From NCBI GenBank assembly GCA_002400365.1, contig DHFK01000087.1, positions 9,635 through 73,634 on the forward strand: a DNA stretch of 64,000 nucleotides. Direction: 5' to 3'. The DNA is from Anaerolineales bacterium UBA4826 (GTDB lineage: Bacteria > Chloroflexota > Anaerolineae > UBA4142). The notes under the pieces were generated by a model that saw only the letters and a list, made by a program, of their open reading frames with translations, was not told where the DNA came from and did not search any database. Every line of letters begins with the position of its first letter. The first letter of the stretch is position 1. Of this stretch, positions 3,790 to 36,112 are shown piece by piece. Both the position numbers and the translations under genes were made by a program.

Positions 3790-4080
3790 ATGACCCAAGC
3801 AGATGTCCTAAGAACCCTCAAGGCCTTGAAGCCTGAGTTCACCACGCGCTTTAAGGTCAAAGAACTCAGTCTCTTCGGCTCCTTCGTCCGAGGCGAGCAG
3901 ACAGAAGCCAGCGATGTTGACGTTCTGGTAGAATTCGACGAAAGCGCTAGTCTGTTTGATTTGGTAAGGTTGTCACTCTTTTTGGAAGATCAACTTCATC
4001 GGAAGATAGATGTCGTACCAAAGGATTCCTTGCGCATGGAATTCCGAGAGAATATCTTGCGCGAGAGGGTGACGGTATGA
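3790..4080 (+). CDS. mntA: MNT-type nucleotidyltransferase antitoxin (type VII TA)
   Basis: 96 aa. GSxxRG-x-DxD motif (FGSFVRGEQTEASDVDVLV). ATGA overlap with the downstream HepT gene. Confidence 0.85.
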   Translation: MTQADVLRTLKALKPEFTTRFKVKELSLFGSFVRGEQTEASDVDVLVEFDESASLFDLVRLSLFLEDQLHRKIDVVPKDSLRMEFRENILRERVTV

Positions 4081-4445
4081 GAGACTATCGGATTTTTCTC
4101 AAGGACATCTTGGCGGCGATCAAAAGCATCCAGACATTCATCGCGGGGATGGATCTCGAAACTTTCCAATCGGATGACAAGACGACGAGCGCGGTTATTC
4201 GCAAGTTCGAAATCATCGGCGAAGCCGTGCGGGGTGTTCCCGAAGACATTCGCACCGCCTATGCCAAAGTCGCGTGGAAAGAAATGGCGGGGATGCGTGA
4301 TCGCCTGATTCATTTCTATATGGGCGTCAATTATCGGCTTATCTGGAAAACGATTCAAGAGGACTTGCCTACGACCGAAGCGCAGATTCAAAAAATCCTT
4401 GAGGAAAACCCAGCCGACCCGGCAAACGGGCGGGTCTCGGAATGA
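4077..4445 (+). CDS. hepT: HepT (DUF86) HEPN-family RNase toxin
   Basis: 122 aa. Rx4HxY HEPN motif (RDRLIHFY). Translationally coupled to the MNT gene. Confidence 0.85.
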   Translation: MRDYRIFLKDILAAIKSIQTFIAGMDLETFQSDDKTTSAVIRKFEIIGEAVRGVPEDIRTAYAKVAWKEMAGMRDRLIHFYMGVNYRLIWKTIQEDLPTTEAQIQKILEENPADPANGRVSE

Positions 4446-4454
4446 GCTTCGTGG

Positions 4455-5066
4455 ATGATTCCTGTTGATTTCGGCTTGTCCAAGTCAGGAGTAGGAGCGT
4501 TGAGAAAGAACGTCCAGTCCCAGTGGAAAGAAGAAACTCTCCGAATGAAGCCGGGTCACACTTGGAAATCCCAGCCCGGCTACAAGATATTTGTGGCGGA
4601 TCGCGGGGCAGTGCGCTTCCAGATTCCAAAACACTGGATCGTTGAGCCAGATGCGCGGTCTGTCAAATTCTTCGACGGCGCGCCCCCAAACGATAACTGT
4701 CGCTTGGAGTGCTCTTACTTGCGTATACCGTCCTTGGACTGGAGCGGACTGCCTCTGTCGGAACTGATCGCCGTGGCGCTGAAGGGCGATCCGAGAGAAA
4801 CTGTGATGAGTGGAGACATCGTTCAGCCAGATAGACAGGATCTTGAGATCGCTTGGGCAGAGTTTAGTTTCGTTGATTCAAACGAACAGCGTTCTGCCTG
4901 CACGCGAGTTTGCATTGCCCGCGGCTCCGGAATCCAATGTCTGCTCACGCTTGATTTCTGGCCCGAGGATGCTGCGCGAATCAATCCGGTGTGGCTTCAA
5001 GTCATCCGCACCGTGGAACTGGGCAGGTACGTCACCGATCCGACCAAGGGAGAAACTATTCATTGA
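4455..5066 (+). CDS. hypothetical protein (start uncertain; alternative ATG at 4545)
   Basis: 203-aa ORF with no motif I recognise. It lies in the same visibly lower-GC patch as the MNT/HepT pair. Confidence 0.45.
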   Translation: MIPVDFGLSKSGVGALRKNVQSQWKEETLRMKPGHTWKSQPGYKIFVADRGAVRFQIPKHWIVEPDARSVKFFDGAPPNDNCRLECSYLRIPSLDWSGLPLSELIAVALKGDPRETVMSGDIVQPDRQDLEIAWAEFSFVDSNEQRSACTRVCIARGSGIQCLLTLDFWPEDAARINPVWLQVIRTVELGRYVTDPTKGETIH

Positions 5067-5080
5067 ACGTTTTTGGCAAA

Positions 5081-6784
5081 TTACTTCTCCCCCACCACAA
5101 TCAACGACATCGCGTTCGGCGGCATTGCAAATGAAACGCGCGCCGCGCCGTTCTCGATCGCGCTGGCGCTGACTTGAGGCGCCAGTTTCGCTTTCGCCGC
5201 GATCTCCGCGACCTGCGCGCTCGTCGGTGATTTGGGACTGCCGAGCGCGAGCCACGCGCGGTACGCGTTCGCGTGCTCACGGTCAATCCGATAGTGCTTT
5301 AGCGGTACACTGGTCCCAGTAATTCCCTTGACCGTCAACTCGACCCCGACCGGATCACCGGTTCCTGCCGGGTTCTTTTCCTCGAACCGGTAAACAACCA
5401 TCTGTGCTGATCCACCGCGCCGCGCGGCAAAGCCGCGCACGTCTGCGCCCGGCTGCGCGATGTCAACGGCGATGCGTTCCGATCCCAGTTTGCCGAGCAA
5501 CCAGTATGCGTTGAAGATGGGCAGCGGAATGACCTGATCGCCGTAGAGCCGCGTGTGGGCGCGCCAGCCGTTCACCATTTGTCCCCAGCGTAAGAACAAG
5601 TCCACGCGCGCGTCCGCGTTGTTCAAGTTGTTGTCAATCGAACGGCAGAGGAACGCGGCATCGTATTCGCCCAAGACCGTCGGCGATTGTCCGGCGTCGC
5701 TCTGATTCAGTGTTTGTCCCCACTCGTTCTGGTGCAATTCGACTTGCGCCAGCGCGGGGTAACTGCGGACGCGCGCGCGGCGTTTCTTGTTATGCTCCAA
5801 TAATCCCTGGCTCGCGCCGTAGCCGTGCCACGAGATGAAATCAGCGCGCGTGCCGCGCGTGCCGGTCACCGCGTTCGTGCCACTCGTGATGTGATCGAGG
5901 AAGAGCCGGAAAAAGTCGTCGTGTCCGGCAAGCCCAGGTCCCCCCACTCTGATTTGCGAATCTGCCGCCGTCGCGCCATCCACAAAGTAATCGTACATCT
6001 TGTTGAACCGCGCGATGCGTTCGGACGTGAATTTCTGCGGACCTTCCGCGCCGTCAATGAAATAGGCGCGCAAATCCGGCTCGTTCCAGATTTCAAAGTA
6101 CCAGGTCCGCACCTCGTCCGCGCCATAGCGTTCGCCGAGATGCTTCACCGTGTGGTAAATCATCTCGCGCCATTTGGAGTAATCGCGCGGCGTGTTGATC
6201 GCGCCGCCGGAATAGTTGCGGACAAGCGTGCCCTCCGCGAGCGCGTCCGGCATAAAGTCCATTTCGAGGATCGGTTTCAAGCCGGCGCGCTGCCAGATGT
6301 CCAGAACTTGATCGAGATACTCAAAGTTGTAACGCGGCGCGCCGCTCGCATCTTCGGCATAGACGCGGCAGCCGTAGATTTGATCTGGACGCGCGCGCGG
6401 CGCCGCATCGCTGAATGTATTGTGACAGCGGATGTAGCGAAACGCGCGGCTCGCGCGCATCATCTCCCAGACCGGCTGTGTGACGGGCGAGGTCGTGTGC
6501 GCGAACATCGGATCGAAGCCGACGTTGCCCCACAGTTTCGCGTCGCACGCGCCGACGACGCGGCTGATATCTGCGCTCAAGCGCGCGGCGAGGGGCGGCG
6601 ACGTAGGAGACGCCGTTGGAGATGGAGGGACAGAAGTTGGCGGTTGGAAGTTGGAAGTTGGACTGGGCGTTGGCGCAGCGGTGGGAATGTCGGCGGCTCG
6701 GCATCCTCCAAGCATCCAAGCGGCGGCGAGTGATGCCGCGCCGATCCCGACTTGCTTTATGAATTCGCGGCGGGTTGTTCGCAT
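5081..6784 (-). CDS. clan GH-A glycoside hydrolase (GH39-like) with Tat/lipoprotein-type signal
   Basis: WYFEIWNEPD catalytic-acid motif. N-terminus MRTTRREFIKQVGIGAASLAAAWMLGGC. GGAGG sits 5 nt upstream of the ATG at 6784. The ORF-track start at 6820 is probably too long. Confidence 0.75.
   Translation of the reverse strand: MRTTRREFIKQVGIGAASLAAAWMLGGCRAADIPTAAPTPSPTSNFQPPTSVPPSPTASPTSPPLAARLSADISRVVGACDAKLWGNVGFDPMFAHTTSPVTQPVWEMMRASRAFRYIRCHNTFSDAAPRARPDQIYGCRVYAEDASGAPRYNFEYLDQVLDIWQRAGLKPILEMDFMPDALAEGTLVRNYSGGAINTPRDYSKWREMIYHTVKHLGERYGADEVRTWYFEIWNEPDLRAYFIDGAEGPQKFTSERIARFNKMYDYFVDGATAADSQIRVGGPGLAGHDDFFRLFLDHITSGTNAVTGTRGTRADFISWHGYGASQGLLEHNKKRRARVRSYPALAQVELHQNEWGQTLNQSDAGQSPTVLGEYDAAFLCRSIDNNLNNADARVDLFLRWGQMVNGWRAHTRLYGDQVIPLPIFNAYWLLGKLGSERIAVDIAQPGADVRGFAARRGGSAQMVVYRFEEKNPAGTGDPVGVELTVKGITGTSVPLKHYRIDREHANAYRAWLALGSPKSPTSAQVAEIAAKAKLAPQVSASAIENGAARVSFAMPPNAMSLIVVGEK
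6615..6675. repeat. GTTGGAA-type heptamer run inside the GH39-like CDS (encodes a P/T/S linker)
   Basis: GTTGGAG..GTTGGCG GTTGGAA GTTGGAA GTTGGAC. It uses the same unit as the 2439-2494 array. On the minus strand it reads PTSNFQPPTSVPPSPT, just after the lipobox. Confidence 0.7.
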
Positions 6785-9134: not shown

Positions 9135-9215
9135 TTTCGATTGCCGATCCTTCGGCAAGCGCAGGACAGGTTTTTCGATTTTCGATTGGGGCGCGCCAGA
9201 AATCGGCAATCGAAA
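9135..9215. repeat. TTTCGAT-unit repeat/hairpin between the kinase and regulator genes
   Basis: TTTCGATTGCCGAT (9135-9148) is the perfect reverse complement of ATCGGCAATCGAAA (9202-9215). An internal TTTTCGATTTTCGATT tandem lies at 9172-9187. Confidence 0.8.
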
Positions 9216-9231
9216 ATCGAACATCGAGAAT

Positions 9232-17040: not shown

Positions 17041-19878
17041 TCAGGGCAGGTCGAGCGCCGGAAGCAGCACGCGGTCTTCCGCGGCGCTGGTTTTCAAGCG
17101 CACGCCGGTCGCTGGATCGTACACACCAATTTCGATTGGGTACATGCCCGGCGGCAAATCGGCGGGCAGCGTCAGCGTGTGCGCGTCGGCCATGTATTCG
17201 CCCTCGATCCAGCCGGTCGTCGGGAATTGATCGTTGCCCGGCGGCGCATCGCCAACGGCGATGACGTTGTTCTGCGCGTCGAGCAGGTGCACGAACACGG
17301 TGTACGGCGTATCCATGAGCGCGAGCGCGCGCCAGTACAAAGTCACCTGCGCGGTGGATTGTTTTGAATCTATTTGCAGATCGTAACCCAATAACTTGAT
17401 TTTCTGATCGAACGCCGCTTCCAGCGCGCGCGGAATGTTTGGCGCAGTCATCACCCGCGCGCGATTCTTTATTTCGATGCTTCCCAGGTCAACGACCGTG
17501 GCGCGGAACGGCAGCAAAGGCGTACCCAGCAGTTGATTGTTCCGCGCGACCGCGAGTTTCACCGCGTACTTGCCGTCGGCGACGTTCGCGGGGATACGCA
17601 TCGGGGACCAATCGCGCACGTACGTGTGCGGCTGCCACTGGAAGGGAGGATAGCCAACGCTGATGAGCGTATCGCGGCTAGTGATTTGTCTTCCTTCGGA
17701 ATCATCCAGCCAGATCCGCGCCATCAGATTGTCCGGCAGTTTCAGCGCGCCCGCGCGCCACAACAAGGTCAGCGGGAGCGCGTCGCCAGGTCGCGCCGGC
17801 GCGCTCGCGTCGAGCGCATAACCGACGAGAGACAACACGCCAAAGTCGGCGTCGGCGATCCGCGCGACGTTCCACGCGTCGAGCGAATAGCCGGCGAGCG
17901 ACAGCGCCAAGTACTCGGCGGCTGCGTGCGCGCCGTTCCGCGGGTCGCGGCGCGGCGCTGTAACGTCCGCCTCGAGCGTGATCTTATCGAGATCGCGCTG
18001 ACCGATCACGCCGCCGGAATTCGCGTCGTACAACGTCACGTTGACGATGTACTCGCCGGGCGTGACGCCCAACCACAGCGGCACCGCGTACGTATCAACG
18101 ATGATTTCGCCGGCGCGCCACGCGGTCGTGGGGTACGCGTCGAGCACGGGGCGGTGATCGGTTTGTCCGACGACGCGTCGATCGCGGCGTAGCACTTTGA
18201 CCGAGACCATTACGTCGCTTTCGATTTTTTGCGCGGCGAGCCAATGCAGTGTCACGCGCAGGCCGCGCCCGTTCTCCGCGTGCCAGCGACCGGGAAGCGC
18301 GTTGAGTCGCGCCGGGTCTAATTCGACCCCAAGCAGGGTGATGTCCGCGCCAAAGGACTCGCCGAGCCATTGCGCGTGCTTGGGATCGCCCATGACCGGT
18401 TGCGGGTTCACGCGGATGAGAGGACCGAGCGAACTCAGCGAGTATTTCTTCGCCGCGCCTTTCAGTTGTCGCGTGAGATAGACGACGCGGTTTTGTCTCA
18501 GCGCGTCGGCGATGGCAGCCAGGCGCGCGTCCTCTTTGTCGGCGGCGATCGTCTGGACGTCGGGGCGCAGACCTTGCGTCTCTTGAAAATAACGCAGCAG
18601 CGTCATCTCGCCCTGAATGCCGATAATCGTCGCGTTATTTTCGAGCGGCTGATTCAAGATGTCGAGACCATAGTCGTGGACGTCCCATTTGTTGGCTAGT
18701 TGGTTAGTTGGATAGTTGGCTAGCAACAGGTTAGCGGGAATGAGAAACAGGAGCCATCCAACTAAAAGGGTGAGTGGCGCAAAACGTGAAACGTAAAACG
18801 TAAAGGACTGGAGTGCGTCAATGCCTACGCTGAGGAAGAGCGCGAGCAAGAGAAACATCGTGAGAAAGTGGACTTGCACATTGGCGGTGTGATAATTGAA
18901 CGCAAAGCCGGCTTCGGCGAGCAGCGCGACGGCAAGCAACACCCATTCGCGCGGGCGGCGCAGCAGCGCGACGACGCCGAGCGCGGCGAGCGCGATGCCC
19001 GCGACAGTGAATTGCGCGTTGAATAGCGACCAATAAAAGGCGGCATCGTGTTGGACGTTAAACGGGTTGCCGAAAAAAGTAAAGTACTGTTGCGCTGTCA
19101 CCCACGCGATGAATCCTTGCAGTGTGTTTTCGTACGTGCCGTCGGCGGAGCCAACGCTGCCGCGCAAGGGCAGATATAGGTAAAGCAGCAATGGCGCAAT
19201 GAAAAGCAACGCGGCGCGCGCAAGCGTCTTGAAATCGCGGAGGATGGAGCGATCAACGAGTAAAACGTAAACCGTAATGGCAGGGTAGAGGAGCAAGATG
19301 AGCCGATGGTGAGTCAGCCCCAGCCCCATCGTGAACGCGAGCGCGTAGAACCTGCCCTGAGCGGAGCCGAAGGGGCGGTGGCGCGCGGCATCTGCGTTTC
19401 CGCGCGCGTGCTCTTCACGCCAGGCGAGCGCGAGGTAGAGCAGGATCGCGACGATCAGCATCTGCGTCGAGTACGTTTCCGCGATGACCGCTTGCGACCA
19501 AAAGGTCGGTCCGACCGCGAACGTCAGCGCGCCGATTAGCGCGGCGATGCGGTACGCGGTGAGGTGACGAATGACCAGGTACACCATTGCCACGGCGAGC
19601 GCGCCGTTCAGTGCGGAAAGCAAATTCAGCCGGAACGCGGGGGCGTTGAGCGGCACGATTAGCGTGAACAGTTTGCCGAGAAGCGCGTAAAACGGATAGC
19701 CCGTCTGGTGAATGATGCCGAGGCGCGGGACGACGTACTGAAACTCTAGCGTGTCGTCGAAGAGGAACGCCACCGAGGGCGCGAGTGTGCGCAGGTACAG
19801 CGCGCACGCGAGAAGGCAGATGAGCGCGCTGATCAGCGCGTCGCGGCGAGCGTTCCAGAGATGGGTTAGCGTTTTCAT
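17041..19878 (-). CDS. DUF2723-type polytopic membrane glycosyltransferase-like protein
   Basis: 945 aa. N-terminal DDTLEFQYVVPRLGIIHQTGYPFYALLGKLF resembles the DUF2723/TMEM260 signature. Many TM segments, then a large soluble C-terminal domain. Confidence 0.75.
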   Translation of the reverse strand: MKTLTHLWNARRDALISALICLLACALYLRTLAPSVAFLFDDTLEFQYVVPRLGIIHQTGYPFYALLGKLFTLIVPLNAPAFRLNLLSALNGALAVAMVYLVIRHLTAYRIAALIGALTFAVGPTFWSQAVIAETYSTQMLIVAILLYLALAWREEHARGNADAARHRPFGSAQGRFYALAFTMGLGLTHHRLILLLYPAITVYVLLVDRSILRDFKTLARAALLFIAPLLLYLYLPLRGSVGSADGTYENTLQGFIAWVTAQQYFTFFGNPFNVQHDAAFYWSLFNAQFTVAGIALAALGVVALLRRPREWVLLAVALLAEAGFAFNYHTANVQVHFLTMFLLLALFLSVGIDALQSFTFYVSRFAPLTLLVGWLLFLIPANLLLANYPTNQLANKWDVHDYGLDILNQPLENNATIIGIQGEMTLLRYFQETQGLRPDVQTIAADKEDARLAAIADALRQNRVVYLTRQLKGAAKKYSLSSLGPLIRVNPQPVMGDPKHAQWLGESFGADITLLGVELDPARLNALPGRWHAENGRGLRVTLHWLAAQKIESDVMVSVKVLRRDRRVVGQTDHRPVLDAYPTTAWRAGEIIVDTYAVPLWLGVTPGEYIVNVTLYDANSGGVIGQRDLDKITLEADVTAPRRDPRNGAHAAAEYLALSLAGYSLDAWNVARIADADFGVLSLVGYALDASAPARPGDALPLTLLWRAGALKLPDNLMARIWLDDSEGRQITSRDTLISVGYPPFQWQPHTYVRDWSPMRIPANVADGKYAVKLAVARNNQLLGTPLLPFRATVVDLGSIEIKNRARVMTAPNIPRALEAAFDQKIKLLGYDLQIDSKQSTAQVTLYWRALALMDTPYTVFVHLLDAQNNVIAVGDAPPGNDQFPTTGWIEGEYMADAHTLTLPADLPPGMYPIEIGVYDPATGVRLKTSAAEDRVLLPALDLP
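18691..18805. repeat. two simple-repeat patches inside the DUF2723 CDS
   Basis: GTTGGNTA x4 at 18691-18722, read as LANYPTNQLANK. AAAACGTGAAACGTAAAACGTAAAGG at 18778-18805, read as SFTFYVSRFA, uses the same ACGTAAA unit as the intergenic arrays at 40831 and 43261. Confidence 0.7.
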
Positions 19879-20036
19879 TGCGGCGAGATGATAACACAGA
19901 GTACGGAGAATCGCAAAAGTGAATGGTTTGTTGTATAATCACAGGAGAAATTCGATTCTGGAACAGCGACGCGCGGCACAACCTTGAAGCGGTGTTGGCG
20001 ACGATTTCAGAGAGGTTGCCAGACCGCGCGGAGAAA

Positions 20037-20156
20037 CGTCTTGACAATGTTGGATTAGCCACAGAGCGCACAGAGGACGCAGAGAAAAATCTGTTCTTTC
20101 CTCTGTGTTCTCTGTGTCCTCTGTGGCGGAAAGGAAAATGTAACATTGTCAAGACG
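20037..20156. repeat. 120-nt compound hairpin: 15-bp outer stem plus CACAGAG-unit inner arms
   Basis: CGTCTTGACAATGTT (20037-20051) is the perfect complement of AACATTGTCAAGACG (20142-20156). The inner arms are CCACAGAG CGCACAGAG GACGCAGAG versus CTCTGTGTT CTCTGTGTC CTCTGTGG. Confidence 0.9.
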
Positions 20157-20191
20157 TGAAAACCCTATGTCGTGACATCGAGGAGGATGTT

Positions 20192-20851
20192 ATGCTCCGC
20201 TCACTCTTTCGCTTCCTTTGGCTGAGCATCGCCGCTGCGGCAATCACCTGGTTGATCGGCTGCAGTTCCGCGCCGACGCCGACTATCGTCCCATCGCCGA
20301 CAAGCGTCGTTCTGCCGACTCCAGTGCCGAGCGCGATGCTAACCGATACGCCCACGGCGGCGCCCGCGCTCGCGCCAACACAAACGCCGACTGCCACGCC
20401 AACGGTCAAGACGACGCCCACGCGCACGCCGACGCTTGCCGCGGGCACGATGCGCATCAAACTGTTCTTCGTCGCATTGGAGGACAATGGCAAGCGCGGC
20501 AAAAAGATCGGCTGCAACGACAGCATCGTCGCGGTGGATCGCGTTATTCCCGCGACGACGGCGCCGCTGACCGCCGCGCTCAAAGAATTGTTTTCGATTA
20601 GCGAACGCACTTATGGTCCGTCGGGTCTGTACAACGCGCTGGCTCAAGCCAACTTGAAACTGGACAGCGCCGCGGTCGTCAACGGCAAAGCGACCGTCAA
20701 TATCTCCGGCGTTCTGAAACTCGGCGGCGTCTGTGACAATCCCAGAGCCGAAGCGCAGATCAAGGAACTGGTCATGCAGTTCGCGACGGTCAAACAGGCA
20801 AACATCTTCATCAACAACATCCCGATCGAAAAGGCGCTTTCCGAAAAATGA
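20192..20851 (+). CDS. GerMN-domain lipoprotein
   Basis: Lipobox LIGC after a hydrophobic N-terminus, a P/T-rich linker, then a GerMN-like domain. GAGGAGG sits 5 nt upstream of the ATG at 20192. Confidence 0.65.
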   Translation: MLRSLFRFLWLSIAAAAITWLIGCSSAPTPTIVPSPTSVVLPTPVPSAMLTDTPTAAPALAPTQTPTATPTVKTTPTRTPTLAAGTMRIKLFFVALEDNGKRGKKIGCNDSIVAVDRVIPATTAPLTAALKELFSISERTYGPSGLYNALAQANLKLDSAAVVNGKATVNISGVLKLGGVCDNPRAEAQIKELVMQFATVKQANIFINNIPIEKALSEK

Positions 20852-21492
20852 TTCTGACGCCCCTCCCCCTCGTGCGAAAAATCGAACTGGCTTTGCTCGC
20901 GCCCGAATTAGCGCGGCAGGATGTCGAAACGGGCTGCGCCGCGGCAGTGCGCTTGGATTGCGTGTCGGTGTTCGTCAAGCCGCATTATATCCAAGTCGCG
21001 CGCAAGGCGCTGAAGGATACGCACATCAAGGTCGTGTCGGTCGTCGGCTTTCCGCACGGCGGCGTGACCACGGCGACAAAAATGTACGAGACGCAAGACC
21101 TGATTCAGCGCGGCGCGGATGAACTGGCGATGGTCGTCAACCTTGGCGCGCTGCGCGATCGCGACGACTTGGCGGCGCGCAACGACATCGCCGGCGTCGT
21201 CAGGACCGCGCGGGGCAAGCCGATCACGGTGATTCTCGAAACGCCGCGGCTGACCGACGAAGAGAAAACGCGCGGCGGCAAGATCGCCGAGGCGGCCGGC
21301 GCGTCGTTCATCCAAACTGCCACCGGCTTTGCCGGCGACGCGACCGTTGCCGACGTGCGGCTGTTACGCGCCACCTGTCCAGGTCTAAAGGTGCGCGCGG
21401 CGGGCGGAATCCATTCGCCGGCAGACGCGCTGGCGCTGCTCGAAGCCGGCGCAGAACGCGTCGTTGTAAGCGCGAGCGAAAAGATTCTGTGA
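20848..21492 (+). CDS. DeoC/DERA-fold protein lacking the canonical catalytic residues
   Basis: 214 aa with clear class I aldolase DeoC-like motifs (VVGFPHGG, ADELAMVVN, VILET, FIQTATGF, VRAAGGI). The conserved Asp and three Lys positions read A94, T127, Q156 and R183. ATGA overlap with the upstream gene. Confidence 0.8.
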   Translation: MILTPLPLVRKIELALLAPELARQDVETGCAAAVRLDCVSVFVKPHYIQVARKALKDTHIKVVSVVGFPHGGVTTATKMYETQDLIQRGADELAMVVNLGALRDRDDLAARNDIAGVVRTARGKPITVILETPRLTDEEKTRGGKIAEAAGASFIQTATGFAGDATVADVRLLRATCPGLKVRAAGGIHSPADALALLEAGAERVVVSASEKIL

Positions 21493-21500
21493 TGGCTCGG

Positions 21501-21648
21501 GTCATCATTGCGAGCCAACCCAAGCAATCTCCACAGCACGGGGGGATCGCCTGCTTCGCCCTTGGACTTTGCTCAGGGTCGCTCAGCCCCGCATCGTTCG
21601 ACTGCGCCGCTTTGCGGCTCCGCTCACGATGCTCCTCGCAATGATACG
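21501..21648. mobile_element. MITE-like palindromic element (GTCATTGCGAGCC family), long copy
   Basis: Terminal 11-bp inverted repeat: ATCATTGCGAG (21504-21514) versus CTCGCAATGAT (21635-21645). Its internal GCAATCTCCACAGCAC..GGGGATCGC..CTTCGCC block is shared with the copy at 44369-44465. Confidence 0.6.
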
Positions 21649-21669
21649 GCGCGACAAGCCCTCGCGCAT

Positions 21670-21698
21670 TTGAAATCACTGGGAGAGTAGAGTATAAT
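21670..21698 (+). promoter_or_regulatory. promoter candidate TTGAAA-17-TATAAT upstream of moaC
   Basis: TTGAAA 21670-21675, 17-nt spacer, TATAAT 21693-21698. The moaC ATG is at 21735. Confidence 0.55.
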
Positions 21699-21734
21699 GC
21701 GGGCAACCAAATTTCTTGTGCTTCAAACATCACG

Positions 21735-22223
21735 ATGACCCTCTCGCATCTCGACGAACAAGGGCGCGCGCAGATGGTGGACATCAGCGCAAAAGCCGAT
21801 ACCGAACGCGTCGCCATCGCCAAGTGCCAGGTGACGATGCAAGCCGCGACGCTCGCGCTCATCCGCGCCGGCAAGATCGAAAAAGGCGAGGTGTTCGCGG
21901 TCGCGCGCGTCGCGGGAATCATGGCGGCAAAGCGGACGCACGAACTCATTCCGCTGTGTCATCCGCTGCTCGTCACCGATGTCGCGGTTGACTTTGAAAT
22001 TTTGTCCGCCGGCGACGCGCACGCACGCGCGCGCGTCGGCATCACTGGCACGGCGAAAAACGTCGGCAAGACCGGCGTCGAGATGGAAGCGCTCGTCGCG
22101 GTGACGACCGCCGCCCTCACGATCTACGACATGGCGAAAGCAGTGGACCGCGCGATGCGTATCGAGAATGTGCGTTTGGTGTTGAAACGTGGGGGCAAGT
22201 CGGGGGAGATTCAGTTGGAGTGA
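21735..22223 (+). CDS. moaC: cyclic pyranopterin monophosphate synthase MoaC
   Basis: 162 aa. Typical MoaC sequence ([42 protein letters not shown]). Confidence 0.93.
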
Positions 22224-22248
22224 GCGTGTTGCCCCAACGGAGGTAAGC

Positions 22249-22494
22249 ATGGAGTCGGTTAAGCAAGCATTGCATAGCACAATTGAATTGCTGGGCGACG
22301 AAGAAGCGCGCCAGATTCTGGAATTCGCAAGACGACTGCGAGAAAAGGACGCCGTTTCGCCGACACTGCGACGATTGGCTAACGATCCGACATTCAGAAT
22401 TCCCTCGATGGAAAAACTTGCCTTCCGCGTCGTGCAGCCGATCGAGGGGAAAGGCATTGCAGCATCCAGACTCTTGGTGGAGGATCGGCGATGA
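22249..22494 (+). CDS. putative antitoxin partner of the PIN toxin
   Basis: 81 aa. GGAGG sits 6 nt upstream. ATGA overlap with the downstream PIN gene. No family motif I can name. Confidence 0.55.
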   Translation: MESVKQALHSTIELLGDEEARQILEFARRLREKDAVSPTLRRLANDPTFRIPSMEKLAFRVVQPIEGKGIAASRLLVEDRR

Positions 22495-22979
22495 TTCTCT
22501 ACTACCTCGATGCCAGCGCATGGGTCAAGCGCTATTACCGAGAAGCGGGAACAGATTGGGTGCAGAGTTTGTTTTCGCAGAATTCCATGATAGCTTGCGC
22601 ATCCCTGGGTCTAGTGGAAGTAACAGCGACCTTGTCGCGGAAGCGAAAAGCGGGAGAGATTCCAGCCGAACTCTTCGAGCAGAAATCGCAGGAACTCGAA
22701 GAGGATTGGAATCGCCTGATCCAAGTTCAATTCACCGCCGAGGCAGTAGACGCGGCGAGAAAGTCAGCAAGAGAACTTGCGCTCCGCGGAGCCGATGCCA
22801 TTCATCTCGCATCAGCCGTTTTGCTGAGGGGGCGGCTTGCGGAAGGCGATCAGCTGATGCTTGCCACCTCTGATAGTGAACTGAAGAAGGCGGCTCAAGC
22901 ATCTGGTTTCGCTGTGATTGACCCCGGCGAACAAGACGCGCAGTCTGCTCACAATCTACGATATGGCGAACACGGTTGA
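22491..22979 (+). CDS. vapC: PIN-domain ribonuclease toxin (VapC-like)
   Basis: Acidic PIN residues in the expected order (YLDASA, LVEV, GADAIHLA, TSDSEL). The last ~10 codons read out of frame through a moaC-derived remnant. Confidence 0.82.
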   Translation: MILYYLDASAWVKRYYREAGTDWVQSLFSQNSMIACASLGLVEVTATLSRKRKAGEIPAELFEQKSQELEEDWNRLIQVQFTAEAVDAARKSARELALRGADAIHLASAVLLRGRLAEGDQLMLATSDSELKKAAQASGFAVIDPGEQDAQSAHNLRYGEHG

Positions 22980-23055
22980 CCGCGCGATGCGTATCGAGAA
23001 TGTGCGGTTGGTGTTAAAGCGCGGGGGCACGTTGGGAGAAACCAGACTGGAGTAA
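22948..23055 (+). pseudogene. orphan duplicate of the moaC 3-prime end (last 35 codons plus stop)
   Basis: It aligns without gaps to 22116-22223, with 87 of 108 identical by hand count and a 29-nt perfect core. It translates to [35 protein letters not shown], versus [35 protein letters not shown] in moaC. Confidence 0.85.
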
Positions 23056-23058
23056 CCC

Positions 23059-23505
23059 ATGAACACGCGAACACGCTTGGCTCTGGCTCTCAGCGCATTG
23101 CTTTTCCTTCTGATGGTCGCATGCAGCGAGTCCGACAGTCAAATAGCAGTGACAAAGAATTGGATCAATGCCTGCGAGCGTGACGATGCCACGAGTGCTG
23201 GCAAGTTCTGGAGCAAAGTCAATCCAGGGCTTGGCGAGAAGGAAACCAAGTTTCTCTGTGATCTGCGCAAAGAGACCAAATTCAAACTCCACGCGGTGGA
23301 AAAAAGAGACGGCATCATTGCGCTCTTGCAGTCAGGCGAGCAACGTGGCTTACTTGGACTTACTCTGGTGAACAGCGACAGTGGCTGGGTTATTACTGGC
23401 GTCGTATATTCGATCCAGGGCGCGTCCGGTTCTGGGGATGCGCGCTCCGGGTGTGAAATCGGCGCGAAGAAGATAACCAGTTTTGCAGAGTGTTTTTGGT
23501 ATTGA
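23059..23505 (+). CDS. lipoprotein of unknown function
   Basis: 148 aa. Lipobox LMVAC after a signal peptide. Visibly lower GC than the flanks. Confidence 0.6.
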   Translation: MNTRTRLALALSALLFLLMVACSESDSQIAVTKNWINACERDDATSAGKFWSKVNPGLGEKETKFLCDLRKETKFKLHAVEKRDGIIALLQSGEQRGLLGLTLVNSDSGWVITGVVYSIQGASGSGDARSGCEIGAKKITSFAECFWY

Positions 23506-23511
23506 AGAAGA

Positions 23512-24585
23512 ATGAACACCCCTTCCAAACACATCCGCCTCACCTCCTACGCCGCGTGCGCCGGCTGAGCGTCGAAAATCGGCGCTGCCGAACTGGCGCA
23601 AGTTTTGCGCCCCCTGCGCGACAGATTTCAGCCCAAGGATTTTCCCGCGCTCCTCGTCGGTCTCGGCGTCCCGGACGATGCGGCGGTCTATCGTATCAAC
23701 GACTCGACCGCGATCATTCAGACGATGGATTTCTTTCCGCCAGTCGTGGACGACGCGTACGCGTTTGGCGCGATCGCCGCGGCGAACGCCATGAGCGACG
23801 TGTACGCCATGGGCGGCGAGGCGCTTGTCGCGCTCAACATCGCCGCGTGGCGCGACGATTTGCCGCTCGAACTGCTCAGCGATATTTTTCGCGGCGCGGC
23901 GGACAAGGTCGCGGAAGCGGGCGCGGCGATTGCCGGCGGGCACACGATCACCGACGACGAACCAAAATTCGGCTTGGCAGTCACCGGCGTCGTACACCCC
24001 GACCGCATCATCACGAAAGGCGGCGCGCGCGCCGGCGATGCGCTGGTGCTGACCAAGCCGCTCGGCAGCGGCTTGCTCACGACCGCCGGCAAGCACGGCG
24101 TCGTGTCGGACACACATTTGCAGAACGCGATCGCTTGGATGACGCGCCTGAATCGCGGCGCGGCGCAGGCGCTGCAAGCCGTCGGCGTCAAATGCGCGAC
24201 CGACATCACGGGCTATGGCTTGCTCGGTCACGCGTACGAAGTTGCGGAAGCGTCTCACGTCGCGCTGCGCTTCCACGCCGACGCGCTGCCGATTCTCGAC
24301 GGCGCGCTCGAGTACGCGCGCGAACATCAAATCCCCGGCGGCGCAGGGCGCAACAAACTGTACCTGGAAGGCAAGGTCGAGTTCGCGCGCCCGCTCGCCG
24401 ACGCGCTCTACGAGGTTTTGTTCGATCCGCAAACGTCGGGCGGATTGCTCATCGCCGTCCCCGCCGCGCAACTCGACGCGCTCACGCGCGCGCTCAGGTC
24501 GCGTGGAGTTGAACACTGGGTCGTCGGAGAGATAATAGATGAACGAGGAAAGACGAAAGAAACCACGCGCATTCTAGTCGTTTGA
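23512..24585 (+). CDS. selD: selenide, water dikinase SelD with in-frame UGA (selenocysteine) at codon 19
   Basis: The ORF track starts at 23605, but the same frame from the ATG at 23512 reads [34 protein letters not shown]. This matches the SelD N-terminal Cys/Sec-x-x-K glycine-rich loop. The TGA is at 23566-23568. The remaining 326 aa are typical SelD/AIR-synthase-like. Confidence 0.88.
23581..23611 (+). promoter_or_regulatory. candidate bacterial SECIS hairpin
   Basis: GGCGC (23581-23585) can pair with GCGCC (23607-23611), with an inner GCC/GGC helix. Alternatively GGCGCA (23595-23600) can pair with TGCGCC (23606-23611). The structure starts 13 nt after the UGA. Hand-folded only. Confidence 0.35.
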
Positions 24586-24602
24586 TTTCCTTCTCTTCTT
24601 CT

Positions 24603-24637
24603 CTCTCATCTCTCATCTCTCATCTTTCATCTCTTCA
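24603..24637. repeat. CTCTCAT heptamer run upstream of fabF
   Basis: CTCTCAT x3, CTTTCAT, CTCTTCA. This is the complement of the GAAAGAT/GAGAGAT unit family. It sits directly upstream of the fabF SD. Confidence 0.8.
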
Positions 24638-24652
24638 CGAGGAGGTCGTCCA

Positions 24653-25909
24653 ATGTCGGACAATCAACGGCGTGTCGTCGTTACCGGAATGGGCGCAATT
24701 ACGCCGCTCGGCAATTCCGTCGCCAAGACCTGGGCGAATCTGGTCGCGGGCGTCTCGGGCACGCGACGCATCACGCGCTTTGACGCGTCGCGGTTCGCCG
24801 TGCAGATCGCATGCGAGGTCAGCGATTTCAACATCGAGGATTATGCGGAAATTGACCGCAAAGAGGCGCGGCGCATGGACTTGTTCCTGCACTATGCCAT
24901 CGCCGCTAGCGTGGAAGCGTTACGGGACTCGGGCTTGAAGATTGATGAATCGAATTGGGACGAGGTTGGCGCGCTGATCGGTTCGGGTATCGGCGGCTTG
25001 CAGTTGATGTACGACGGCGCGCGCACGCTGCTCGAAAAAGGTCCGATGCGCGTCAGCCCGTTCACGGGACCGTACATGATTCCCAACATGGCGGCGGGCG
25101 AAATCGCGATCCTCTTTGGCGCACGCGGTCCGAATTTTTCGATTGCGTCCGCGTGCGCGACCGGCACCCACGCGATCGGCGAGGCGTACGAAATCATCAA
25201 GCGCGGGGACGCGCAGGCGATGATTACCGGCGGCACCGAAGCGTCGCTCACTGAATTGGGGCTTGCCGCGTTCCATCGCACCCAAGCCATGTCCACGCGT
25301 AACGATGATCCCGCGCACGCGTCGCGTCCATTCGATTTGCAGCGCGATGGCTTCGTCTTTGGCGAAGGCGCCGGCACTCTGATTTTCGAGTCGCTCGAAA
25401 GCGCGCGGGCGCGCAACGCCAAGATCTACGCCGAAGTGGTGGGCTATGCGGCGACCGACGATGCGTTCCACATCAGCGCGCCGGTCGAAGGCGGCGTGGG
25501 CGCGGCAAAGGCAATGCAGCGCGCGCTGAAGAAAGCGGGCTTGGCGCCGGACGCCGTGGACTATATCAACGCGCACGGCACTTCGACCCAGTTGAACGAC
25601 GCGGCGGAGACGACGGCGATCAAAACCGTTTTCGGCGCGCACGCCTACCAGATTCCAATCAGTTCGTCGAAATCCATGCTCGGGCACATGCTCGGCGCCG
25701 CTGGCGCGGTCGAAGCCATCGCGGCGGTGAAGACGATCGAGACCGGCATGATTCATCCGACAATCAACTATGAATTTCCTGATCCCAAGTGCGATCTGGA
25801 TTACGTGCCGAACCACGCGCGTGCGGCGAACGTGCGGGTTGCGATGTCGAACTCGTTCGGCTTCGGCGGGCACAACGCGATTATTCTTTTCAAGAAATTC
25901 GAGAGATAA
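24653..25909 (+). CDS. fabF: beta-ketoacyl-ACP synthase II
   Basis: 418 aa. Active-site Cys motif (SACATG), HGTST and GHMLGAAG motifs. GAGGAGG SD. Confidence 0.95.
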
Positions 25910-25940
25910 CCCTGACAAGGTGACGGGGTGACACGGTGAC

Positions 25941-26717
25941 ATGGAGAAGGACCTGTCACCCTGGCACCGTATCATTATGGATTTGCAAGACCTCGAAACC
26001 GCGCTCGGCGTCACATTCAAAGACAAATCGCTGTTGACGCGCGCGCTCACGCATCGCTCGTACCTCAACGAGAATCCCGATTTGCCGTACCTCGACAACG
26101 AACGGCTGGAATTTCTCGGCGATGCGATTTTGGATTTTGTCGCCGCCGAGTTTTTGTACCAGCGCTTTCCTGAGATGAGCGAAGGCGATCTCACGTCCCT
26201 GCGCGCCGCGCTCGTCAAGGGCGAAACGCTCGCGCGCTTTGCGGCTGAAACTGGCATGCCGCCGCACCTCTTGATGTCGCGCGGCGAAGAAGCCGCGGGT
26301 GGACGCGAGCGCGCGACCCTGCTCGCCGGCGCGGTCGAAGCGCTCATCGGCGCGCTGTACCTTGACCAGGGACTCGACGCCGCGCGGGCATGGATTCTGC
26401 GCTTGCTCCCCAGCGAGGCGGAGCGCGTGCACCATCAGCGGCTCGACCGCGATGCCAAAAGCATGTTGCAGGAACTGAGCCAGGGCAAGTTGCAGGTGAC
26501 CCCACTCTATCGCCTCGTCGAAACGCGCGGACCCGACCACGCGAAAGAGTTCACCATTCAAGTGGTCATCCAGGAGCGCGTGTACGGACAAGGGACCGGA
26601 CGCAGCAAACAGATCGCGGAGCAAGAAGCCGCGCGGGTTGCCTTGGAAGCGTTACAGCAAGAAATCTCGCAAGCAGATCACGCGGCGTTGATCGCCCTAA
26701 AGGGCCAAGTCGAATAG
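25941..26717 (+). CDS. rnc: ribonuclease III (start uncertain: ATG at 25941 or 25977)
   Basis: RNase III signature NERLEFLGDAIL and a C-terminal dsRBD. The ATG at 25941 lies inside a GGTGACA/TGTCACC hairpin (25935-25960), which is preceded by GGTGACG-type units at 25919-25934. Confidence 0.9.
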   Translation: MEKDLSPWHRIIMDLQDLETALGVTFKDKSLLTRALTHRSYLNENPDLPYLDNERLEFLGDAILDFVAAEFLYQRFPEMSEGDLTSLRAALVKGETLARFAAETGMPPHLLMSRGEEAAGGRERATLLAGAVEALIGALYLDQGLDAARAWILRLLPSEAERVHHQRLDRDAKSMLQELSQGKLQVTPLYRLVETRGPDHAKEFTIQVVIQERVYGQGTGRSKQIAEQEAARVALEALQQEISQADHAALIALKGQVE

Positions 26718-34939: not shown

Positions 34940-34999
34940 GATTTTCGATTTTCGATTGACCCCAACAGGAAATCGAAAATCAGAAATCGAAAACCGAAA
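34940..34999. repeat. TTTCGAT-unit hairpin
   Basis: GATTTTCGATTTTCGATT (34940-34957) versus AATCGAAAATCAGAAATCGAAAACCGAAAA (34971-35000). Same unit family as 9135-9215. Confidence 0.85.
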
Positions 35000-36112
35000 A
35001 TGAGTTTTGACGAACTGCTCTTCCAACTGGATAGCGCCGCATCGCTCAGCGCGAAAAAGCGCATGGTGCGCGAGTTCGCCGCGCGCCAGCCCTCCCCGAT
35101 CGTCGAGGATAACAGCGTCACGTTTTTCTATGTGAGCGAGGACGCCCGCGACGTCGCGTTGGAAGGCGATTGGACCCACTGGCAGCCGACCGCGCCGATG
35201 ACGTATTTGCCGGACACGCCGCTCTGGTATCGCGTCGAGCGATTTCCGCGCGAGGCGCGGCTGGAGTATCGGATCGTCGTCAACGGCACCCGCCGCCTCC
35301 TCGATCCCGGCAACCCGCGCACCGCGCCCAGCGGCTTTGGACTGCACTCTGAACTCGCCATGCCCGATTACCACGCGCCGCGCGAAGTGAGCGACCAGGG
35401 ACGCATCGCGCGCGGCGCGGTCGAGCAGCATTGGATGACCAGCAAGGCGCTGAACGATCGGCGCACGTTCTGGGTCTGGCTGCCGCCGCATTTCAACGCG
35501 CAGAAACCCCACCCGGTCGCGTACTTTAACGACGGCGGCGATTACTTGCGCCTCGCCGATCTGCCGCGCCTCCTGGACTATCTGGTCGAATGGGGTCGCA
35601 TCCCGCCGCTCATCGCCGTGCTCGCGAAACCGAACGATCGGGTCAAGGAGTACGCGCGCAACAACCAGTACGTGCGCTTTCTCGTGGACGAACTCGTGCC
35701 GTGGGTGGATGGCCTGTACCCGACGCGCGATGCGCCGGCGGCGCGCGCCATCATCGGCGCGTCGTACGGCGGATTGTGCGCCGCGCATGTAGCGCGCCGC
35801 CGCCCCAATGTCTTCGGCTTGGTCGGCGGACAATCGGGCTATTACAGTTACCAGAACGATGCGCTGCTGCGCGATTATGCGGCGGCGCAGAACCTCGGCA
35901 TCCGTTTCCACCTGGTCGTCGGCTCATTCGAAACCGATGCGCGCGGCAATGGCAAACCCGAAAGCGACTTGGTAGCGGCGCAGCGTCGCTTTGCGGAACT
36001 GTTACGCGGCAAAGGGTACGACGTGGCGTGCGCCGAGTATCCGGAGGGACATCAATGGGGATTTTGGCGCGCGCACGTCGGCGACGCGCTGAGATTTTTC
36101 TGGGGATGCTGA
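35000..36112 (+). CDS. esterase-D/enterochelin-esterase-like hydrolase with N-terminal Ig/CBM48-like domain
   Basis: GASYGG nucleophile elbow (GxSxG) and an N-terminal VTFFYVSEDARDVALEGDWTHW beta-sandwich-like region. ATG at 35000, with an alternative at 34934. The 34628 start is an artefact running through the dapA-like gene end. Confidence 0.72.
   Translation: MSFDELLFQLDSAASLSAKKRMVREFAARQPSPIVEDNSVTFFYVSEDARDVALEGDWTHWQPTAPMTYLPDTPLWYRVERFPREARLEYRIVVNGTRRLLDPGNPRTAPSGFGLHSELAMPDYHAPREVSDQGRIARGAVEQHWMTSKALNDRRTFWVWLPPHFNAQKPHPVAYFNDGGDYLRLADLPRLLDYLVEWGRIPPLIAVLAKPNDRVKEYARNNQYVRFLVDELVPWVDGLYPTRDAPAARAIIGASYGGLCAAHVARRRPNVFGLVGGQSGYYSYQNDALLRDYAAAQNLGIRFHLVVGSFETDARGNGKPESDLVAAQRRFAELLRGKGYDVACAEYPEGHQWGFWRAHVGDALRFFWGC

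Follow-up and report, generated by a model that had tools for sequence, protein, structure and literature searches.

A vapBC cassette between two copies of a moaC 3′ end in a Chloroflexota genome, and the recurrence of duplicated flanks around its family

How do chromosomal toxin–antitoxin (TA) pairs reach the sites at which they are found? Their route of arrival is still unclear, and most of them reside in tiny islets devoid of mobility genes. A locus of the Anaerolineales bacterium UBA4826 (Chloroflexota; assembly GCA_002400365.1) raises this question in compact form. Within a stretch of 64,000 nucleotides of contig DHFK01000087.1, hereafter called the window, the 3′ end of moaC, the gene for cyclic pyranopterin monophosphate synthase, is present twice, and a vapBC-like antitoxin and toxin gene pair lies between the two copies. 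All coordinates below are window positions unless a contig is named, and the features described between 21670 and 24585 lie on the plus strand. Taken by itself, the locus is an ordinary small rearrangement scar; it is the recurrence of duplicated flanks around the same vapBC family in unrelated genomes that raises its interest.

The duplication is a direct repeat. Copy 1 (22116–22223) is the functional tail of moaC, comprising its last 35 codons plus stop and keeping all clade-invariant residues; copy 2 (22948–23055) matches it at 87 of 108 bases with zero gaps, and a repeat finder returned the same pair as the sole long direct repeat of the window outside low-complexity sequence. The longest perfect run is a 29-nt block at 22146–22174, with its partner at 22978–23006. 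Base-by-base comparison thereby reproduces the identity, the absence of gaps and the 29-nt core given in a preliminary description of this DNA. Because the third-codon positions inside the core are all identical (9/9) whereas half of those outside it differ (13/26; P ~0.002), the repeat is not a product of chance, and the block is a candidate crossover or gene-conversion tract. Over the three codon positions, the differences between the copies are distributed 3/5/13.

The borders of the repeat are sharp. Similarity starts abruptly at 22116 and 22948, the joint with the vapC tail, and stops exactly at both stop codons, beyond which copy 1 leads into the spacer before vapB and copy 2 into the CCC-ATG of a lipoprotein gene. 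The novel joint at 22947|22948, where a vapC tail meets position −108 of a moaC tail, is marked by this abrupt start and by the end, at 22949, of the alignment with a group of related contigs (L090–L095, here relA). By eye, the vapC tail of relA possibly shares a microhomology of 4–5 nt (GCTCA) with the beginning of the moaC tail. Base composition also changes across the locus: the 724 bp between the copies (22224–22947) have a GC content of 55.0%, in agreement with the lower-GC TA pair of about 724 bp noted earlier, compared with 60.6% for the window, 62.8% for moaC, 54.6% for copy 2, 52.3% for the lipoprotein gene and 64.8% for selD downstream. In a test for a transposon, insertion sequence or miniature inverted-repeat transposable element, no pair of inverted repeats bracketing 22224–22947 was found, and the duplication is 108 nt long and imperfect. 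An imperfect 108-nt repeat that overlaps the 3′ end of moaC and contains a 29-nt exact block does have the appearance of the attachment (att) sites of integrative elements, a likeness to which we return below.

The data are metagenomic, and a collapse, expansion or chimera of strain variants during assembly would be one explanation of such a repeat. The arrangement is, however, 99.95–100% identical in three JGI metagenomes, in the NCBI metagenome-assembled genome (MAG) GCA_002380735.1 and in three Logan assemblies. With no fewer than seven independent assemblies, made by different assemblers from different samples and including contigs that span both copies, it is therefore no artefact, and the 21 differing sites preclude collapsed reads of one locus. 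An assembly error, which the preliminary description had kept in view, is hardly conceivable, even though one Logan contig starts exactly at 22116. That contig, L006 (SRR1563167_131), begins at the first base of copy 1, and another, L007, begins at 22143, 3 nt ahead of the perfect core; the k-mer of the Logan assembler, 31, exceeds the 29-nt core. The two contig breaks may reflect population variants.

Of the two tails, copy 1 completes a functional gene. The complete moaC (21735–22223) encodes an intact protein of 162 aa that matches PF01967 (E = 3e-52) and is 77–91% identical to more than 115 Chloroflexota MoaC clusters. Copy 2 lacks an upstream moaC body and translates in frame into a 35-residue peptide, both as described before, and it bears K>N, A>T, K>T and S>L, all at residues that do not vary among about 115 MoaC proteins. 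DMAKAVDR, present in almost all of these clusters, has become DMANTVDR, and GGKSGE, present in all, has become GGTLGE; the K, A, K and S that were lost are the same in every cluster, and the lysine of D-M-x-K is presumably the equivalent of a catalytic residue of E. coli MoaC. With these four substitutions, copy 2 is a decaying orphan and, it appears, the displaced copy. DMANTV and GGTLGE were also considered as the signature of a donor and rejected as such: with K-A and K-S invariant in about 115 relatives, they are better read as decay after displacement.

A three-way comparison of copy 1, copy 2 and the nearest relative tail (L105) over 108 sites assigns 9 private changes to copy 1, of which 7 fall at third codon positions, 11 to copy 2, split 5/2/4 over codon positions 3/1/2, and 5 to L105. 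On these patterns, copy 1 evolves like a gene, copy 2 like neutral DNA. The same counts bear on the possibility that the repeat arose in place, through local duplication in tandem or template switching during replication, either of which would have copied the resident moaC tail, with differential loss and decay of the downstream copy thereafter. Had copy 2 been a pseudogene since its split from copy 1, it would be expected to carry 21–30 private changes, and the 11 observed are too few (P = 0.013 to 6e-5); nor is copy 2 any closer to copy 1, at 87/108, than to L105, at 91/108. An origin in place would further require one duplication and two precise losses, and at a comparable locus elsewhere, an aldolase gene discussed below, the differences are mainly synonymous. 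To its credit, the private changes of copy 2 look neutral, the 3/5/13 spectrum alone gives no rejection (estimated P ~0.1), both copies share a T at offset 44, within the core, that is seen in only one of the six relatives compared (relB), and the order moaC, small secreted protein, vapBC, selD of contig L190 could be converted into the present one by duplication and loss. On balance we regard duplication in place as quite improbable, and a tandem duplication decaying where it stands, considered in the preliminary description, is disfavoured by the private-change counts. Pairwise moaC-tail identities within the clade all lie between 78 and 93 of 108. The simplest reading, suggestive as it is, would have the two tails as functional alleles of two related lineages, about 90% identical when they were joined, with copy 2 decaying by about 8% thereafter. 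No match was returned when the MoaC proteins to be expected of an empty site (the moaC body joined to the tail of copy 2, and the two chimeras) were looked up exactly.

The DNA between the tails closely resembles a VapBC module. A 25-nt spacer (22224–22248), with GGAGG at 22239–22243, precedes a vapB-like antitoxin gene (22249–22494; 81 aa), which overlaps by 4 nt the PIN-domain toxin gene vapC (22491–22979; 162 aa; PF01850, E = 1.2e-8, above the gathering score). As in VapBC systems, the toxin has four acidic residues of the PIN domain (D7, E43, D102 and D128), invariant among 18 aligned homologues, and is adjoined upstream by a small partner gene. The VapC family comprises 314 matches below E = 1e-5, the top ones 60–69% identical and called VapC by the named sources. 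In homologous loci, an antitoxin-like gene (31–68% identity) always lies upstream of the PIN gene, and the pair is kept in about 70 loci. By analogy with such systems, the pair is predicted to be toxic, to be neutralised by its antitoxin and to be addictive. It departs from a typical VapBC in three respects: the 81-aa antitoxin has no Pfam or NCBIfam match and hence no curated family, the 25-nt spacer leaves this copy without a promoter region of its own, and the last ten residues of the toxin derive from the moaC remnant. The PIN reading frame extends 32 nt into copy 2 in another frame, as reported earlier, such that its last 10 codons are copy 2 sequence. Since the acidic residues are invariant and homology to relatives stops near residue 148–152, beyond which C-termini vary, the toxin body is intact, the remnant-derived residues replacing a variable tail only. 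As for an integron gene cassette, what comes immediately after vapBC is the moaC fragment, into which the last 32 nt of vapC reach, and the flanks differ between loci of the family. Between the copies there are only vapB and vapC, and no integrase or recombinase domain is present among the genes within about 6 kb on each side, which bears out the earlier statement that none is present.

Does the same family lie between duplicated gene ends elsewhere? We collected 80 metagenomic loci with relatives of the vapBC pair, none of which (0/80) has moaC or selD as a neighbour, and could compare 500 nt on each side in 63. Flanking direct repeats of 32–174 nt, with 85–94% identity and E values from 2.6e-10 to 1.7e-69, occur in 12 of the 63. 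Among 408 pseudo-cassettes placed along 80 unrelated loci as controls, there were 12 weak matches, none better than E = 2e-5 (12/63 versus 0/408; Fisher P = 1e-11). Two candidates, L149 and L165, resemble genome-wide repeats of the repetitive extragenic palindromic (REP) type and were excluded, and the 32-nt repeat of L154 was treated as weak. After dereplication and removal of the REP-like cases, at least four independent events remain among 42 cassette lineages (P = 7e-5), with duplicates of 43–174 nt.

In three of the four events, the upstream copy is the 3′ end, stop codon included, of a long intact open reading frame, and the copy on the downstream side is an orphan, after which the next native gene begins. 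The genes so affected encode an AAA_16/TPR regulator of more than 840 aa (L111, L112, L118 and L124; duplicate of 58–139 nt), a class II fructose-bisphosphate aldolase (L156 and L158; 134 nt, 90% identity, with seven of nine coding differences at third positions) and a protein of 306 aa (L151 and L152; 43 nt). The fourth duplicate (L147; 174 nt, 92%) covers the beginning of a minus-strand gene together with the region upstream of it. Similarity between copies at these loci always ends at the stop codon or at most 20 nt beyond it. The proposal that the cassette might be found beside other gene ends is thus borne out. As read from the sequences of the regulator group, the orphan copies of different organisms share a state absent from both functional copies, and one ancestral event must therefore have persisted through speciation; in two further members of this cassette lineage, L117 and L121, the adjacency of gene and cassette is kept and the orphan is missing.

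The cassette also appears in unrelated contexts. Cassettes in L116 (2555–3344) and L130 (127–915) are 84–85% identical at the nucleotide level to that of L118 (2714–3500), and the homology extends no further than from about 45 nt ahead of vapB to the vapC stop codon, some 790 nt with no visible ends. The cassette thus travels as a bare unit, about 0.8 kb in size. At the window locus and at the repeat-positive loci alike, no integrase or transposase is present within about 3–6 kb, the neighbours being ordinary metabolic genes, and visual inspection of the cassette ends reveals no evident motif common to the loci. IMG/VR viral contigs do not contain the family, and its relatives on plasmids are only 31–37% identical and come from Thermus. 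One contig, L157, carries two copies of the family about 2 kb apart (1222–1949 and 3860–4551).

We now turn to the chromosomal neighbourhood. Related contigs share a conserved frame, moaC followed at some distance by selD-fabF-rnc-epimerase, and the content between moaC and selD is variable, which makes this interval a hotspot of variation in related Chloroflexota. In the window, it closes with selD (23512–24585), the gene for selenophosphate synthetase. In relA (MoaC 85% identical), the interval holds vapB-vapC without remnant or lipoprotein gene; in L190, whose contig includes only the MoaC tail (86% over the last 28 aa), it holds a gene for a 93-aa secreted protein and then vapBC; and in relB (L096, GCA_016208315.1; MoaC 80%), vapBC, an aminotransferase and further genes. 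In L103 (GCA_040960315.1; MoaC 89%), it consists of 87 nt only. A glycosyltransferase and a 414-aa gene occupy it in L101 (GCA_020723345.1; MoaC 91%), a membrane protein in L105 (MoaC 91%; the contig ends before selD), and a 327-aa gene, a lipoprotein homologue, a different TA pair and an 80-aa gene in L106–L109 (MoaC 81%). More distant Anaerolineae have the order moaC-moaDE-fabF. In L106, the TA pair within the interval (4564–5101) is a DUF433 gene with a gene for a PIN_10/DUF5615 protein; the same kind of pair lies directly downstream of a vapBC homologue in L192 (917–1514), and TA pairs seem to accumulate at the same spots.

The gene next to the remnant belongs to this variable interval. 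The lipoprotein gene (23059–23505; 148 aa, with a signal peptide and a conserved Cys22) has its ATG 3 nt past the stop codon of the remnant, the final codons of which provide a GGAG ahead of it. A full HMMER scan found only three clear homologues, all distant (33–47% identity), and the one with readable context, P0124, sits between moaC and selD in related MAGs; a word-indexed search with the lipoprotein and a metagenome scan with its alignment gave no match. Because homologues lie in the same interval of related Chloroflexota, this low-GC gene is a resident of the interval and no part of a foreign island. The low GC content remarked upon in the preliminary description stands, and the doubt that it cast there on the island boundary is settled.

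These observations frame the reading that we prefer, if tentatively and with a confidence that falls a little short of even. The cassette would be the incomer, brought by one-ended or Campbell-type homologous recombination between related Chloroflexota lineages, with the addiction module then retaining the duplication. The two lineages would have differed in their content between moaC and selD, such that the incoming fragment carried the end of a relative's moaC and the adjacent vapBC, whereas in the recipient the lipoprotein gene came right after moaC. Only one side of the fragment would have found homology in the recipient, and the sharp borders of the repeat are what such one-sided homology would lead one to expect. 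After circularisation, a single RecA-type crossover within the moaC tail, for instance in the 29-nt block, could have integrated the fragment. Alternatively, one homologous crossover in or upstream of the tail could have been combined with an illegitimate joint at 22947|22948. By either route, a complete moaC would be rebuilt (copy 1), vapBC would come to follow moaC, and the resident tail (copy 2) would be pushed downstream beside its native neighbour, with no integrase needed. A block of 29 nt is about the size needed for such a crossover, as judged from minimal processing segments. Direct repeats are normally looped out by homologous recombination; here, loop-out of vapBC would remove the addiction module and kill the cell, and the duplication would thus persist while the orphan decays.

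Four observations count in favour of the cassette as the incomer: the recurrence of the arrangement elsewhere, the residency of the lipoprotein family in the interval, the tight 3-nt junction between remnant and lipoprotein gene, and a backbone that resembles L103. The second and third fit the expectation for an orphan scar, as copy 2 lies downstream of the module and 3 nt from a gene of an interval-resident family. As for the fourth, the vapC of the window is sister to those of relA and L190, yet its backbone is closer to the cassette-free L103 than to relA (rnc 84 versus 79%, epimerase 75 versus 70%, MoaC 89 versus 85%), which fits a horizontal arrival of the cassette.

A number of points weigh against this reading. 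The nearest cassette-bearing relatives, relA, L190 and relB, hold vapBC in the same interval without a remnant, and the window is collinear with relA at the nucleotide level from 21731 to 22949, with the alignment resuming at 23504. What is extra relative to relA is the remnant and the lipoprotein gene (22950–23503), which in a pairwise comparison is most simply read as an insertion. The vapC–selD junction is conserved in relA and L190, and the first 120 nt of selD (23512–23630) are 92% identical to relA, compared with 78–82% for the other relatives compared (L103, L101 and L096), which suggests that vapC and selD were once contiguous here. The spacer between moaC and vapB, together with the vapB start, weakly resembles the spacer after moaC in L103 (p ~0.009), such that the cassette may once have been present in the backbone lineage and later been deleted from L103; this idea rests on one 26-nt match, as the remaining part of the 87-nt spacer is dissimilar to the cassette. 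The tail comparisons draw on 108 sites, and a sliding-window comparison with six relatives reveals no mosaic breakpoint inside moaC. The protection of the repeat from loop-out by the toxin would follow from general properties of addiction modules. Finally, neither an empty site nor a donor genome was found, all four locus proteins being singletons at 90% identity. The empty moaC site that the preliminary description proposed to seek in related genomes did not turn up; what was found instead is a variable interval, with some relatives cassette-free. A scan of genome contigs with MoaC, covering 80 loci among the matches listed (52–71% identity), yielded no second moaC tail, cassette or lipoprotein gene. 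A seeming vestige of the remnant in the vapC–selD spacer of relA (p ~0.006) was discounted, as its TTTGG overlaps a selD leader also present in L190 and the rest is possibly due to chance.

Several of these points are accommodated if the direction of transfer is reversed. The resident arrangement would then be the relA-like moaC-vapBC-selD, and a cassette-free relative would have contributed the lipoprotein gene, preceded by a moaC tail and CCC and followed by the start of selD, through a crossover at or near the selD start and an illegitimate joint just after vapC. A clean double crossover would remove the addiction module and hence be lethal, and only recombinants that kept vapBC would survive. 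The extra DNA relative to relA spans exactly 22950–23503, vapBC abuts selD across a conserved junction in relA and L190, the selD 5′ end (92% to relA) and the sister vapC fit vertical inheritance of a vapBC–selD block, and there is the possible vapB vestige in L103. The start of the lipoprotein gene, moreover, repeats that of selD: ATGAACACGC at 23059–23068 matches the selD start of the window (23512–23521) at 9 of 10 positions and that of relA at 10 of 10, which suggests a second, smaller gene-end duplication in the interval, this time of the selD 5′ end. Reversal nonetheless leaves unexplained why the cassette lies between duplicated tails elsewhere, although the survivor-filter argument could rescue it; the backbone genes are nearer to cassette-free L103 than to relA, and the lipoprotein family is already resident in the interval of relatives. 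A circular, Campbell-type intermediate, furthermore, cannot yield the gene order if the lipoprotein piece is the cargo. We hold transfer in this direction to be a serious proposal but a doubtful one.

The likeness of the repeat to att sites raises another explanation, namely, a remnant of the kind known as a cis-mobilizable element (CIME). An integrase-bearing element with a replacement moaC tail in its attP would have inserted and then lost everything but the addiction module, or the cassette would have been mobilised in trans, with the two copies as attL and attR and the core as the crossover site. Imperfect direct repeats that include a gene 3′ end, a replacement tail and an exact core within a diverged repeat are the classic att footprint of islands, prophages and integrative and conjugative elements (ICEs) whose integrases target the 3′ ends of tRNA or protein genes, and of their integrase-less derivatives, the CIMEs, and here the architecture recurs around one vapBC family. 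CIMEs, as known from ICESt1 and ICESt3, encode no recombinase inside the element, and when islands decay, TA modules are expected to survive the longest. A study of Photorhabdus likewise proposes the latter (Mol Biol Evol 2026; PMC13617665). Against this, none of the five loci has an integrase or fragments of element genes within it or nearby, and what is left is uniform, always the cassette plus less than about 200 nt, not random remnants. Unlike in integrase islands, the cargo is 0.72 kb; the duplication varies from 43 to more than 174 nt and at one locus covers a gene 5′ end and promoter; the exact block is central rather than at the 5′ edge of the repeat; the cassette ends share no evident motif by eye; and viral contigs lack the family. 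Neither an integrase or excisionase nor a related autonomous element came to light here, and no such element sharing the moaC att site was seen at the moaC loci of relatives in a non-exhaustive search. A CIME-like origin is therefore improbable in our estimation. Of the earlier claim that the locus bears the footprint of a displaced gene tail, the footprint itself holds, with copy 1 completing moaC, copy 2 orphaned and the pattern recurring, but the dedicated integrative element finds no support, given the lack of a recombinase, of a shared end motif and of viral copies.

Returning to the cassette as the incomer, the closest precedent lies in the effector loci of Rhs, contact-dependent inhibition (CDI) and type VI secretion systems (T6SS), where displacement of 3′ ends by toxin–immunity modules through homology-facilitated illegitimate recombination was proposed (Kirchberger et al., 2017; PMC5361080). 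The second of the two routes above, a crossover plus an illegitimate joint, is the mechanism proposed there for orphan 3′ ends and immunity genes. Both settings have a conserved upstream gene as a one-sided anchor, a two-gene toxin–antidote insert and an old 3′ end kept as a downstream orphan. They differ in that the anchor here is a housekeeping gene (moaC; elsewhere the aldolase or regulator gene) rather than a toxin gene, the module is an intracellular type II TA pair, the orphan has no function to preserve, and no arrays of successive orphans are seen. A second parallel is provided by the TA islets of Photorhabdus, which are compact, contain no more than a TA pair, lack mobile-element genes and occupy high-turnover intervals between core genes; their spread is proposed to occur through homologous recombination at the core genes that flank them, and their persistence to follow from their being addictive (PMC13617665). 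There, one system is reported with a duplicated 24-bp res-like palindrome around it, and a search of its text for the term 'direct repeat' gave no occurrence (PMC13617665). What the present loci add is the long (43–174 nt), imperfect duplication of neighbouring DNA. In the literature covered, which was incomplete, we found no description of TA cassettes flanked by direct repeats or duplicated gene ends.

Other features of the locus and the window may be noted briefly. A promoter-like site upstream of moaC (TTGAAA-17-TATAAT, 21670–21698; 11 of 12 consensus matches) is the only one found within 21500–23700, and no plus-strand terminator-like site was found in that range. With one promoter-like site before moaC and no terminator-like site before selD, all five genes from moaC through selD may share one transcript. 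At the lipoprotein gene start (23059–23076), ATGAACACGC is followed by a tandem GAACACGC GAACACGC. The in-frame TGA of selD (23566–23568) lies in the motif AACAG-U-ASKIG, with GGCTGAGC conserved in five relatives, and is probably a selenocysteine codon; mechanical open reading frame calling and public gene calls start selD too late, at 23605. The gene looks mosaic, most of columns 120–480 being closest to L103 (86–92%), which suggests frequent homologous exchange among these lineages. An Rfam scan of 19000–26000 returned nothing relevant. Just upstream of a Germane-domain gene is an inverted repeat (20058–20127) with 31-nt arms that are 84% complementary, the sole Rfam match of which is a sub-threshold chance match to a plant microRNA family. 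Elsewhere in the window, arrays of short repeats resembling TTGGAGA or GTTGGAG lie about 4 kb apart (2418–2507 and 6616–6663), and a 60-nt element rich in TTTTCGA and TCGAAAA occurs twice (9172–9231 and 34942–35001; 75% identity), possibly representing a dispersed intergenic repeat family.

What may this scar tell us about the family? Together, the window and at least four independent family loci display a reproducible footprint that fits host recombination rather than a dedicated recombinase. By extension, and this we put forward as a possibility that we rather doubt, recombinase-free vapBC cassettes might spread as a piece of a gene plus the cassette, either as a fragment or as a looped-out circle, by a single crossover of the host; addiction would counter-select loop-out, and the duplication could regenerate transferable circles. 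If this were true, long imperfect duplications of neighbouring DNA would be diagnostic of TA mobility, and they would provide direct genomic evidence that chromosomal TA pairs stabilise adjacent DNA. Should the pattern generalise, it would offer a sequence signature with which TA acquisitions could be dated and traced, and a natural test of whether addiction modules protect flanking DNA from deletion. It would also call for caution in annotation, as orphan gene tails beside such cassettes should be neither annotated as genes nor taken for evidence of prophages.

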